Assembly (NCBI GenBank): GCA_026328835.1 | Contig: GCA_026328835.1_4850.1 | Source of the DNA: a phage | Direction: 5' to 3' (one strand) | Length of the DNA: 46,457 bases | In this document: piece by piece, positions 22,938 to 27,820 of the stretch | Layout of the letters: each line of letters starts with the position of its first letter | Numbering within the stretch: the stretch's first letter is position 1 | The notes under the pieces: model-generated | Told to the model about the DNA's origin: nothing | The model's database searches: none | Seen by the model: only the letters and a program-made list of their open reading frames with translations | Program-made: the position numbers and the translations under genes

Positions 22938-23400
22938 TGAAGAATTTGCGCAGTTAATGTTTGGCAAGCCATACAAAGACAGATGTTGCCATGTTGATGC
23001 CGTAGATTGCTGGGGGCTGGTGGTGCTTTATTACCGCATGTGCCGTGACATCAATATTCATCATGACGACAGCTACGATAATGGAGGCTCTTTTGTTACC
23101 TGCTTCGATAGCGAAGTGACATTCTGGCAGGATACGCAATCACCAGCAACAGGAGATGTTGTCGTGGCATATCGTGGCAACATTCCTGTGCACATCGCCA
23201 TGATGTGGGGGCGTGATAGAATACTCCATGCGCGAGAGAAAACGGCAGTCAGATTTGACAGACTGCGAACACTCGAAAAAATATCAACAAAGTTAAGGTT
23301 TCTCACCTATGCCAGTAATTCATGTTCAGAAGATGCCGGGCACACCGAAAGAAACGGGGATTGTGCCAGCGGGCACAAATCTGTGGAAGTGGCTGAATAA
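22930..23400 (+). CDS. tail assembly protein K-like (NlpC/P60-type Cys-His-His)
   Basis: start MSDEEF at 22930; C in DCWGLVV, His in HIAMMW and HAREK. Confidence 0.55.
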
Positions 23401-25795
23401 ATCAAATCTTCCTGCCAGCATTTCAATCTCGGTAAACGGCAGAGTGCTTGGTGAAGATGATGATCTTTCCTTCTGTCTGCGCGATGGCGATGTGGTCAAC
23501 GTTTATTGCCAGCCATCCGGCGCAATTGGCGACCTGATCGGTGCGATACTGAAGCCAGTAACGAAGATTTTCTCATTCCTTACACCAAAGGTATCCACGC
23601 CGAAAACGGATACCAGCTCCAAAACATCACCTAACACCAGCCTGAAAGCGCAAACCAATATTGCTCGCAATGGCGAGGCGCGCCCAGATAATTTCGGGCA
23701 GATTCGCGCGTTTCCTGATTTGCTTCAGGAATCATTATTTGAATACATCAATAACATTAAATACGTCACCGAGTTCATGAACTTTGGACTAGGTAAGTAC
23801 GACGTATCTTCAGTGCGTTACTCTGAGTCAAACCTCGGCTCACTGGCTGGCGCGAGCTATACAATTTATCAGCCGGGAGAAGTTATCCCGGTTGTGTATG
23901 AACCTTACGCATTTGATGATGTTGATGGGCAGGAACTATACGGGCCAAACGAACTGGATACCGACCCGCCACCAGTGGTTATTGAAACCGCAACAACAAC
24001 TACGGTCACAGAAACGGAATTTGCTGGAGGTCAGATTGCTGTCAAAATACCGAAAAACTCAGCATTCGATTATTTCGTTGACCTTACCATGCCGCATGAT
24101 GTGGTGTTAAAACTGAATATCACTTACGCGCAGGGAGGTGGTGCATCTGTCACCGAAAACGTTACGCTATCAGGAAGACTTGTATCTGCAACAGAAACTG
24201 ATGATGGCGGATTACCACCAGTAAACTACTGGTACACATTTATTATTAACAGCATCAACTACTCAGGCGCGCCAATATCATCACTAAATGGCGTGACGAT
24301 TAATAATACCTATTTCAATCTGACAGATAACCAGCCGATTGTTTCCGGCCCGTACTTCTCACCGATTGATGGTGATCAGCTCTGGGTGCACCTGCAACAC
24401 CAGACCAATGATGGCAATGATTTCAGCGTCCTCATTGAGTGGTGGAAGATTGACGACGATAACGTTCAGATTCCCGGAACGTATCAGTCGATGAACTATT
24501 ATCAGGACGTGGACAGAAACGATACGTTCTACTACACAATCAAGTTAACCCCATCTGCTGGCACTGGTCGCTACGCGATTCAGATGCGACGGACAAATAA
24601 CAGCTCCGACACATCAATTCTTCAGCTTGAGGAGATTCACTCAATAGTCACTCGAACCAATGTTTCTTATCCAGATGACACAGTGGTTAAGGTTATCGTG
24701 CGAGCAACAGAGAACGCAACAGGAAGCCGTGACAGGAAATATAATGCGTTAATCACGCGCCACACCATCGGATACAATCGTGATACTGGCACGGTCCGAT
24801 ACACGCTTGCTCCATCGCGCAGCTTTGCTGATGCTGTTCTGCACAACTGGCTGATTACCGCTGGCAATCCAGAAAACACGATCGATATCGTGAAGCTGTA
24901 TGAAATTTCCGACAGCCTGCCAGATGAGCGACTTGGTTATTTCGATTATACTTTTGACGATGAAGATAAAAGTATTGGCGAGCGCCTGCAAACCATCTGC
25001 GATGCAGCGCGCGTCACTGCATTCTGGGATGATGGCGTGATGAGCTTCTCTCGTGATGAAAAACGAGAATATCCAGCAACTGTATTCAATACCAGAAACA
25101 CGCAGAGCGACGGTTACAAGCTAAGTTATGATATCAGCCTTCCCGGCACTTATGATGGAGTTAACGTCGAATATCGCGACCCAACAACGAACAAGCAAGC
25201 CAACGTCTACTATAGAATTGCCGATAGCGGAATAGTCGAAGGCGAACCAACGAAAGCCAAGAAATTCGACATGCTTTATGTTCGAAACCGTTATCAGGCT
25301 GTTGACCGGGCAATCCTTGAGTGTCGCCGTTTGATTTATTCCCGCCGCAGCATGGAAATTAAAGCACTGGCAGACGGAGAATGGGTTAACGTTGGCGATA
25401 TGATTCAGGTCGTCGATATGTATGATGATGTGCAACAGACTGGCGTTATTGAAGCGCGCAACGAAAATGTATTCACAACCAGCGAGCAACTCACGGCAGA
25501 TGATAATCTCTACGTTGTGATTACCAGTTCTGACGGCAGCGTGTCAGACAGATTGCCAGCTACAGTAACCGGATTGCATACATTCACTTGCAACCTGCCA
25601 TCTGATTTTCAGCTAAATATATGGGACGGTACAAACGTGCAATCTGAATCCCGTTATGTGCTGAGCACGGAGAAAGAGCTGGATACCACACTGTGGGTTG
25701 TCAGCCAGAAGAATCCAGGGAGCGACGGCACGACGACGCTAACAATGAGTGAATACTCTGATGAGATGTACGAATATGCCATCTCGTCATCGTGA
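23309..25795 (+). CDS. central tail fiber / host specificity protein J-like with N-terminal I-like segment
   Basis: 828 aa; N-terminal ~90 aa ubiquitin-like (VNGRVL...DGDVVNVY...[10 protein letters not shown]); remainder resembles N-terminal two-thirds of lambda J. Confidence 0.7.
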
Positions 25796-25834
25796 TACAA
25801 TATACATCAAATTCACAAAGGAGCATTTACTATA

Positions 25835-27820
25835 ATGGCTACCGTACCAACCAACAAACCAATTCCGTCTGAAGACCCGCGAGACCTGAAGTTTAATGCC
25901 GGAAAAATTGACGAGGTAGTGACATCTGAAGCACATTACTACAACGATCGCTTTGGCGTGCGCCGCTGGACTATTGCTGGATTCCAGCACACAGCAGAAG
26001 AAGCTATCCGCAACTATGGTTACATCACGATGGACAGCTTTGAAGATGGAGCGACACTAACGCTACCTAATCAGGTGCTGCGCTATGAGGCTACTGGCGA
26101 ATATTACCGTTGGGATGGGGAGTTTCCAAAAACAGTGCCTGCAGGTTCAACCCCTGAAACATCTGGTGGCATTGGTCTTGGTGCGTGGGTCAGTGTTGGT
26201 GATGCGTCTTTAAAGACCATGCTTTATGGGTGGCAGGGCTACTCATTCATTGACGGTGGTAACTTATCATTATACAAAAAGAAAGGCATCTTTGGTGATT
26301 CAGGGGTAATTCAAAACAAATATGAAGTAATTAAATATTCTGATGGGTTTTGGTATAAATATAACAACTCATTGCCATTCTCTTACGGTTCATCCCCTGA
26401 TTCCAATTGGACTAACGTAGGCAAGCTGAATGGGTTTGACGAGAATACCCCAGATAATTTCGGGGCGGTTGTAAATGACAGTACGTATGACTGCCTTGAC
26501 GCCATTAACAAGGCAATGGCTACTGGATTTTTACGACTCACTGCTGGTGCCACTTATTTTGTTAGCGATGAAGTTGTTATCCCATCTAATTTAGTGATGG
26601 AAACAAACGGCGCAACTATTAAAGCGATGAGTGGATATTCATGGGGTGGAAAGGCTGTAGTTAGAGCCAGCAAAAAACCAGTAGGGACATCTCCGGACCT
26701 TTCATTGCCTGAACAACAAGTTCGTGGAATTAGGCACGTTGGTACATTAAATATTGATGCTAACAATGTTGCGCCTTACGGTTTTTATGGTTTTGGTGTA
26801 GTCGCAGAATCTGCCACAGACATTATATATGCTTATAATGCCACAGAAGTTGGAATTGTACTTCTTGGGAGTTGGTATCATAAAGTAAACCAATATATGG
26901 CGATTGATTGTGCAAGAGGTGTATCTCTGGCGCATGGTTTCTCAGGTGAAACAGGAGACGTAAACGTTAATGGTGTTGAATTTGGTGTCGTCGCTGCGTA
27001 TAACACATCAAAATCTTTGTCCTATGGGTATGACCCGTATTCATCATCTTTAACCCCACAGCTCATAGGTGCTGGTGTCACTCTCGGGCAAGGACTGGCA
27101 TCAAGAATAGGAACATTAATAGCTGAAACTACAGCAGGCGCTGGTTTAGCTACTGTTAACGCTGTTAGTTGGTCTGTTGGTTCTATGTACTTCGAAAAAT
27201 GCAGTGAAGCGCTTGAAGATAGCGCAGAGCCTGATATTGCGATATTATCAACTACAGGAAATGTCGAGGACCACGTATTTGACGTAGGTAATATCCATTT
27301 CGGCATAGGGACTGGTATACTGCAAAGAGCAACGGCAAGTGAGTTTCTCAACATCCAGTCCATATACCGTATGGACAATAAAAAAACATGGCATAGTTTT
27401 TCAAAGGCGTCTTCAAGTTTTGTAAATTTCGTAAACTATTACGTTCTCAACCCTTATGATTACGTTAAACCTGTTCAACTGACTCATGACGTAGGCAAAG
27501 AGGTCGTCAGTTCATCGTCAATGCTTAACTTTAAGGATTTTTCAAATACGCCAATTATACCTTTTGTATACACCGGAGGTGAGATAGCGATTCACGTTTC
27601 CATTTCTTACGGCAGTGTATTATCTACTGAATTTCAGGTAACTTCTGATTCAGGAATAGAATACATCACATGCACTGGATCACCTTTTCAGTTTAACCTT
27701 ACGCAGCCAAGGACAGTAGGTAATACCTATACTGTGACGTTATCAACTGCGAAATCAGCAGCTTCTGGTCAAGGGGCGATACATATACTGAAACAAAAAC
27801 CAAGTCAATGGCTTAGGTAA
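25835..27820 (+). CDS. tailspike / tail fiber with beta-helix depolymerase-like domain
   Basis: 661 aa; N-terminal anchor domain then DNFGAVVNDSTYDCLDAINKAMA (pectate-lyase-like start) and Gly/Val-rich beta-repeat region. Confidence 0.65.
   Translation: MATVPTNKPIPSEDPRDLKFNAGKIDEVVTSEAHYYNDRFGVRRWTIAGFQHTAEEAIRNYGYITMDSFEDGATLTLPNQVLRYEATGEYYRWDGEFPKTVPAGSTPETSGGIGLGAWVSVGDASLKTMLYGWQGYSFIDGGNLSLYKKKGIFGDSGVIQNKYEVIKYSDGFWYKYNNSLPFSYGSSPDSNWTNVGKLNGFDENTPDNFGAVVNDSTYDCLDAINKAMATGFLRLTAGATYFVSDEVVIPSNLVMETNGATIKAMSGYSWGGKAVVRASKKPVGTSPDLSLPEQQVRGIRHVGTLNIDANNVAPYGFYGFGVVAESATDIIYAYNATEVGIVLLGSWYHKVNQYMAIDCARGVSLAHGFSGETGDVNVNGVEFGVVAAYNTSKSLSYGYDPYSSSLTPQLIGAGVTLGQGLASRIGTLIAETTAGAGLATVNAVSWSVGSMYFEKCSEALEDSAEPDIAILSTTGNVEDHVFDVGNIHFGIGTGILQRATASEFLNIQSIYRMDNKKTWHSFSKASSSFVNFVNYYVLNPYDYVKPVQLTHDVGKEVVSSSSMLNFKDFSNTPIIPFVYTGGEIAIHVSISYGSVLSTEFQVTSDSGIEYITCTGSPFQFNLTQPRTVGNTYTVTLSTAKSAASGQGAIHILKQKPSQWLR

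Follow-up and report, generated by a model that had tools for sequence, protein, structure and literature searches.

When a J-like gene ends before its receptor-binding domain and is followed by a separate spike gene, which of the two products closes the tail tube and which recognises the host? This question is raised by a 46,457-nucleotide phage contig (GCA_026328835.1_4850.1 of NCBI GenBank assembly GCA_026328835.1), the whole of which is referred to here as the window. An earlier sequence-only reading had proposed a short J-like central fibre of 828 amino acids (aa), encoded by the open reading frame (ORF) 23309-25795, and a 661-aa depolymerase-like tailspike, encoded by ORF 25835-27820. 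Both ORFs are present as described, on the plus strand, and an AAGGAG ribosome-binding site lies 11 nucleotides 5′ of the spike ATG. Neither is a chance reading frame, because the first product is identical to a protein of solved structure at 807 of its 828 residues and homologues of the second number in the thousands. The region 22467-26213 has 88-90% nucleotide identity to a cluster of 45-48 kb siphophages (among them Escherichia phage C1; Shigella phages Sf11 and DS8; Salmonella phages Skate, LPST10 and 64795_sal3), all of which Humolli et al. class as Skatevirus (PMC11990801). On sequence comparison, the two genes are those of the tail-tip hub and the tailspike of a Skatevirus-like siphophage, from this E. 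coli, Shigella and Salmonella phage group. We consider it very probable that they make up the distal half of an Sf11-like tail tip, with a fibreless hub and a laterally mounted, exchangeable beta-helix spike.

The solved protein is gp14 of Sf11 (PDB 9OCC_E), to which the hub aligns without gaps over its full length at 97% identity. Gp14 is baseplate hub protein 2, present in three copies per virion and modelled for residues 81-827 by cryo-electron microscopy (cryo-EM) (PMC12724387). That the 828-aa protein is J-like was borne out by the NCBIfam model NF040662 (TipJ-related), which gave 447.4 bits against a curated cut-off of 140 bits and spanned hub residues 356-822 and profile positions 6-477 of 477. 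A Foldseek search with the AlphaFold2 model of the hub returned 9OCC_E as the top match and then lambda gpJ chains, with E-values from 1.6e-23 (8k35_A) to 4e-20, followed by T1 (9l9p_S, 8.7e-18), T5/DT57C pb3 (~1e-9; 7zhj_b, 6.7e-9) and Chi (4e-6). By BLASTP, hub residues 560-773 aligned with lambda J 339-560 at ~21% identity over 220 residues. Nothing in Pfam was significant on the hub, the matches to Phage-tail_3 (E 0.042) and to ThiS (E 0.03) both being below their cut-offs.

On lambda J itself NF040662 covers residues 145-590. Since the match stops at hub residue 822 and at J residue 590, the hub ends at approximately J residue 600. Past this point lambda J contains the Pfam domains Ig_J (610-714), Ig_J_second (716-818), Phage_Tail_Tip (845-972) and Ig_GpJ_C (1001-1132), which are FNIII-1, FNIII-2, the helical shaft with the straight fibre, and the receptor-binding domain (PMC11101478). 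None of the four (PF24421, PF24489, PF09327 and PF12421, respectively) was found in the hub even at E-values up to 10, and it was unmatched by NF049904 (lambda_TipJ, central tail fiber J). The protein had been proposed to stop where lambda J would continue into its receptor-binding domain; this domain is indeed absent and J is not matched over its full length, but the end comes earlier, before the two Ig/FNIII domains. Compared with lambda gpJ (PDB 8K35, 8IYK and 8XCG; PMC11101478), the hub fold, the TipJ core, the position after M/L/K-like genes and a K/I-type overlap are shared, whereas the FNIII/Ig domains, alpha-helical shaft, central straight fibre and LamB-binding domain are lacking and the protein is ~530 residues shorter. 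The 828-aa protein is a J-type hub without any fibre and not a short central fibre. The short hub-only form is the norm in the family: a family search gave 1946 representative clusters at E-values up to 1e-3, and among the best 150 of these ~105 finish at the hub C-terminus and 20, of at least 1000 aa, carry extensions.

For the 661-aa protein, a beta-helix had been anticipated, and a right-handed parallel beta-helix was confirmed as the predicted fold of its model. The helix opens with a capping motif, DNFGAVVNDSTYDCLDAINKA. This string had been quoted as the pectate-lyase-like start of the protein; it occurs at residues 206-226 and marks the start of the beta-helix domain, which is preceded by ~205 residues of anchor and adaptor domains, including a small beta domain between Tail_spike_N and the helix. 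The likeness to pectate lyases holds for the fold only; no Pfam beta-helix or pectate-lyase model (e.g. PF12708 or PF13229) matches the spike. In a sequence search of the PDB, the Tail_spike_N region matched the N-terminal domains of CBA120 TSP1, TSP3 and TSP4. A parallel beta-helix as receptor-binding or catalytic domain is shared with CBA120 TSP1-4, the P22, Sf6 and HK620 tailspikes and phi29 gp12, although helix sequence identity to the window spike is only 8-16%. Nine acidic residues (D288, D308, E325, E372, D400, E431, E478, E503 and D514) are invariant in 27 homologues with 44-98% helix identity, and on this conservation they are active-site candidates.

The spike had also been suggested to be swappable, and this is well supported by the nucleotide comparisons. 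Resemblance to C1, Sf11 and Skate is lost at 26204-26213 and picked up again at 27825-27828. Over 26126-27843, the window has 94% nucleotide identity to the spike region of the 152-kb myovirus vB_EcoM_UP17 (Phapecoctavirus), rising to 95% over 26210-27820; the UP17 spike protein is 93% identical over residues 68-661. At the protein level, residues 1-130 have 82% identity to Sf11 gp13 and no similarity beyond. The left crossover sits in a conserved stretch of Tail_spike_N coding sequence (WDG..PK.VPAGSTPE..GG) and the right crossover in a terminator hairpin common to C1, Skate and UP17, 3′ of which the window follows Skate. The receptor-binding part (residue ~127 to the end) has thus, judged by sequence, demonstrably been exchanged between unrelated phages. 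What is specific to this window is a chimera of a Skatevirus-type anchor and a UP17-type beta-helix, with mapped junctions.

The same beta-helix is found on four unrelated anchors with 93-98% identity. Residues 201-520 are 98% identical on the Skatevirus-type anchor, in a second siphophage lineage and in UP17; identity is 93% in those E. coli prophage spikes that have a head-binding domain of the P22 type, and ~45% in T7-type (Kayfunavirus) fibres. The second siphophage lineage, possibly Kagunavirus-like, has a differing replication module (DNA polymerase A and SNF2 helicase) and the same order of tape measure, distal tail protein, DUF1833, K, hub and spike genes. The match to the E. coli T43 prophage spike stops at spike residue 582, and the sequences suggest that the C-terminal ~80 residues can be exchanged partly apart from the helix. 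The receptor-binding part resembles the spike of Dompiswa phage TSP7_1 as well as that of UP17 (CAA7332709); UP17 differs in its N-terminal anchor and in being a 150-kb myovirus with several spikes and fibres.

Where the spike is attached can be judged from Sf11 (PDB 9OCC; Subramanian, Dover & Parent, J Virol 2025, PMC12724387), which shares the hub, spike anchor, adaptor helix, salt-bridge residues and gene order with the window. There, six lateral spike trimers (18 subunits) ring the tip on the gp17 adaptor helix; gp13 residues 4-59, as modelled in 9OCC, bundle with a single adaptor helix, and salt bridges join gp17 E129, E136, E147 and E152 to gp13 R16 and K19 (PMC12724387). The window encodes a distal tail protein with 70% identity to gp17, counted from its true start at 21087 (Met17 of the listed ORF); this gene lay outside the coordinates of the sequence-only reading. 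Its adaptor segment is nearly identical to that of gp17, with all four glutamates kept, and the spike keeps R16 and K19. Because all six Sf11 contact residues are conserved, the spike most probably docks, by analogy with Sf11, on the distal tail protein as six trimers and not on the hub. A spike continuing the hub, as implied by the title of the sequence-only reading, would be a central, tip-mounted extension in which a single trimer replaces the J fibre and its receptor-binding domain. The spike gene does lie directly 3′ of the hub, the locus of central-fibre receptor-binding proteins in other small siphophages (PMC11990801). However, the cryo-EM map of the Sf11 system, whose hub is 97% identical, has its spikes laterally on the distal tail protein, and the Sf11 hub, built as far as residue 827 of 828, bears no spike (PMC12724387); moreover, the contact residues are conserved here on both partners. 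We therefore regard a central spike as highly improbable; it is already largely refuted by 9OCC.

By analogy, the beta-helix most likely cleaves a surface polysaccharide, as either a hydrolase or a lyase. Among the candidate substrates, an E. coli O-antigen is the most likely. An O-antigen is favoured because Sf11 requires full-length lipopolysaccharide (PMC12724387), the BASEL Skatevirus isolates require O16 and have no other receptor-binding protein (PMC11990801), and the spike module is found on anchors of the P22 type as well as in Salmonella chromosomes. The module was present in 2 of 5426 complete E. coli genomes (T43, NZ_CP106954, and CE0021a, NZ_CP119006, whose records carry no serotype), which points to a rare serotype. 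A capsule depolymerase of the K-antigen or colanic-acid type, instead of an O-antigen endoglycosidase, is possible because many of the top structural matches of the spike are either lyases or capsule depolymerases from phages of Klebsiella and Acinetobacter. In addition, Phapecoctaviruses such as UP17 bear more than one spike, including one with a colanic-acid-degrading annotation, and capsule is the target of the Roufvirus and Nonanavirus relatives on Klebsiella (PMC11990801); with these points taken together, we still judge a capsule substrate to be unlikely. Less likely again is a host range set jointly by the spike and by the hub, whose beta-sandwich insertions (~residues 225-450) would bind a secondary receptor. 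The hub has ~110 residues of extra beta-sandwich relative to lambda J, on the N-terminal side of the TipJ core, with jelly-roll-like Foldseek matches (birnavirus VP2 and Cry toxin domains, E ~1e-5). Yet it is 89-97% conserved across Shigella, E. coli and Salmonella relatives with different spikes, which counts against a host-specific role, and single ompA, ompC and ompF knockouts are without effect on Sf11 (PMC12724387).

The favoured arrangement, a fibreless hub with lateral spikes, would operate as follows. Three 828-aa copies would form a conical hub closing the tail tube, each comprising the hub-domain part of lambda gpJ and a fused gpI-like N-terminal segment (a beta-grasp and a plug-like stretch). 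Host recognition would be handed to the 661-aa tailspike, residues 1-59 of which would bundle with the distal-tail-protein adaptor helix to place six trimers around the tip. The beta-helix would bind and most likely cleave surface polysaccharide, thereby lowering the hub onto the outer membrane; there it would open and let out the tape measure protein and DNA. The receptor-binding cassette would move by recombination, with crossovers in the Tail_spike_N coding motif and the shared terminator hairpin. Sequence identity, predicted folds, domain boundaries, recombination junctions and contact-residue conservation were obtained directly from the window; copy numbers, lateral mounting, enzymatic activity, substrate class and opening trigger are carried over from Sf11 and related phages.

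Several points weigh against this scheme. A PDB sequence search with the spike found N-terminal matches only and no solved relative of the catalytic domain, and the spike is without a Pfam catalytic family, Tail_spike_N being its sole Pfam match at E-values up to 1. The trimerisation, enzymatic activity and substrate of the spike are inferred, the structural model being of a monomer. The gpI-like assignment of the hub N-terminus is statistically weak at the sequence level.

The hub N-terminus had been read as an I-like ubiquitin fold. The fold is supported by the AlphaFold2 model, in which residues 1-67 have the b-b-a-b-b-b strand and helix order of a beta-grasp at a predicted local distance difference test score of 75-88; the weak Pfam ThiS match also falls at the N-terminus, and some hub homologues are named ‘MoaD/ThiS family protein’ by NCBI. 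Residues 1-80 are absent from the Sf11 map model (PMC12724387), and this domain is therefore either flexible or removed. The I-like part of the claim fared less well. Using hhalign against a rebuilt lambda gpI family alignment, hub residues 38-138 were collinear with gpI 60-202 with an E-value of 1.1e-3 at a probability of only 20%. A gap of ~40 residues fell at the Gly/Ala-rich hydrophobic helices of gpI, and only one short helix (residues 76-89) was present in the hub. Rebuilding bettered the E-value but not the probability; none of the listed gpI homologues was below 69% identity, and they therefore added little depth. Against lambda J and lambda I as single sequences, the hub family had given weak matches, with E 1e-3 (21% probability) and E 0.14. 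By BLASTP, hub residues 87-130 matched gpI 151-194, a stretch containing the lumenal plug, with an E-value of 1e-4. The Pfam model Lambda_tail_I (PF06805) was unmatched at E-values up to 1 by the hub and by any of 28 aligned homologues.

A beta-grasp and a plug segment are thus weakly suggested, by sequence and model, to be shared with lambda gpI, the two hydrophobic helices and lumenal plug of which are described in PMC11101478. In lambda, gpI is a separate protein; here the putative I-like part forms one chain with the hub and is without the two hydrophobic helices. We take such a fused I-like module to be likely, although short of proof. The ubiquitin-like domain may be a cis-acting assembly or plug module, perhaps cut off by the K-like NlpC/P60 peptidase, whose gene overlaps the start of the hub gene by 92 nucleotides; lambda K and I overlap alike.

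The distal tail protein of the window has a C-terminal appendage that diverges from that of Sf11, with no nucleotide similarity to Sf11 over 21740-22243. Its function in Sf11 is listed as unknown by the authors of that structure (PMC12724387). The appendage is missing from the distal tail proteins of C1, Skate and the metagenomic contig L008, which are 157 aa long, and from many relatives sharing the same spike anchor; L008 carries a 96%-identical spike. The appendage could be a second, accessory glycan-binding module. It is doubtful, though, that the phage carries two independently exchangeable glycan-recognition modules, the spike beta-helix and this appendage, and we are similarly hesitant about the related notion of the hub N-domain as a cis-acting module.

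Features of the tail-tip region of the window (positions are those of the whole stretch; aa, amino acids)
Feature	Position	Strand	Basis or remarks
Tape measure protein	17572-20058		828 aa; spans PHROG 1538 end to end
HNH homing endonuclease, T5orf172-type	20071-20949	minus	PHROG 681; Pfam DUF4379 and T5orf172
Distal tail protein (Sf11 gp17 homologue), probable spike docking platform	21087-22451	+	70% identity to gp17
Adaptor helix region	21447-21581	+	Distal tail protein residues 121-165
Variable C-terminal appendage of distal tail protein	~21738-22289	+	NCBIfam NF048003 ‘GTA head spike fiber domain’, E 2e-24
Baseplate hub protein 1 (DUF1833; Sf11 gp16 equivalent)	22461-22937	+	Pfam DUF1833; PHROG 396 ‘minor tail protein’; synteny with Sf11 gp16
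K-like NlpC/P60 peptidase	22900-23400	+	Pfam NLPC_P60, E 1.3e-8
Baseplate hub protein 2, J-type, without fibre or receptor-binding domain	23309-25795	+	PDB 9OCC_E identity; PHROG 469; NF040662; Foldseek
Predicted ubiquitin-like beta-grasp domain	23309-23509	+	Hub residues 1-67; AlphaFold2 model
Putative gpI-like segment including plug region, without the two hydrophobic helices of gpI	23420-23722	+	Hub residues 38-138 versus gpI 60-202
TipJ-related hub domains	24374-25774	+	Hub residues 356-822; NF040662
Tailspike, 661 aa	25835-27820	+	
N-terminal anchor helices	25835-26011	+	Residues 1-59; similarity to Sf11 gp13
Tail_spike_N domain (PF18668)	26021-26203	+	Residues 63-123; Pfam E 2.4e-20, 72.8 bits (gathering threshold 25 bits)
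Left crossover zone, similar to both Skatevirus-type relatives and UP17 spike	26126-26213	+	Nucleotide comparison
Right-handed parallel beta-helix, presumed glycan-binding/catalytic domain	26447-27394	+	Residues ~205-520
Beta-rich C-terminal domain	27395-27817	+	Residues 521-661; low-confidence model
Bidirectional terminator hairpin AACCCCGCTTCTGCGGGGTT, right crossover point	27826-27845	.	Terminator scan; 3′ of spike stop codon

Upstream of the hub, the order distal tail protein, DUF1833, NlpC/P60 and hub corresponds to the lambda order M-L-K-(I)-J. The DUF1833 equivalent in Sf11, gp16, is present in three copies per virion (PMC12724387). No MPN/JAB domain was found with Pfam in the K-like protein. 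Its gene is unannotated in the Sf11 and C1 RefSeq records, where the stretch is empty or bears a small opposite-strand ORF. In the window an HNH gene is inserted between the genes for the tape measure and the distal tail protein, which are direct neighbours in Sf11 and C1; in Skate, another HNH gene sits one gene downstream of that point. Splitting of the tape measure gene by the insertion was rejected, as the 828-aa protein covers PHROG 1538 fully and the downstream ORF is a full distal tail protein. The tape measure protein of Sf11 has 780 aa, that of C1 970 aa and that of Skate 1096 aa, a wide spread among close relatives that implies differing tail lengths inside one phage cluster.

Just 3′ of the spike, a recombination module of SSB and an Erf-type annealase occupies 27856-29052 on the minus strand, as against Sak4 and Gam in Sf11 and an AAA protein with exonuclease VIII in Skate. 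Mosaicism is thus evident to either side of the terminator hairpin that these genomes share. Among the matched records, several host labels were implausible; for example, ‘Acinetobacter phage vB_AbaM_AB4P2’ is a Skatevirus-like genome, and the ‘Enterococcus phage EFA-1/EFA-2’ records are T7-like coliphage-type genomes flagged UNVERIFIED_ORG. These names are probably the result of mislabelling.

The architecture described here is already published, as a structure for Sf11 (PMC12724387) and by comparison for the BASEL isolates (PMC11990801); only the particular spike head and its junctions are new, and no biology is added beyond those two studies. From residue ~131 the spike is unrelated to Sf11 gp13, a Sf6/P22-like protein of 585 aa. 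The BASEL Skatevirus and Kagunavirus isolates (Bas70-81; PMC11990801) likewise have a single, enzymatic tailspike of pectin-lyase fold directly 3′ of a J-like hub, with conserved anchors and horizontally exchanged receptor-binding domains. Their spikes, however, target O16, and the receptor-binding domain here belongs to another group, only the first ~130 residues matching Bas77-81 (87-91%). The swap points in the window are placed to ~90 nucleotides on the left and to the 20-nucleotide hairpin on the right. These junctions are directly usable for engineering spike exchange on an Sf11-type scaffold, which has a docking interface resolved in atomic detail. The window is thus a confirmed example of how Skatevirus-like siphophages separate closure of the tail tube, by a conserved hub, from host recognition, by a plug-in spike.

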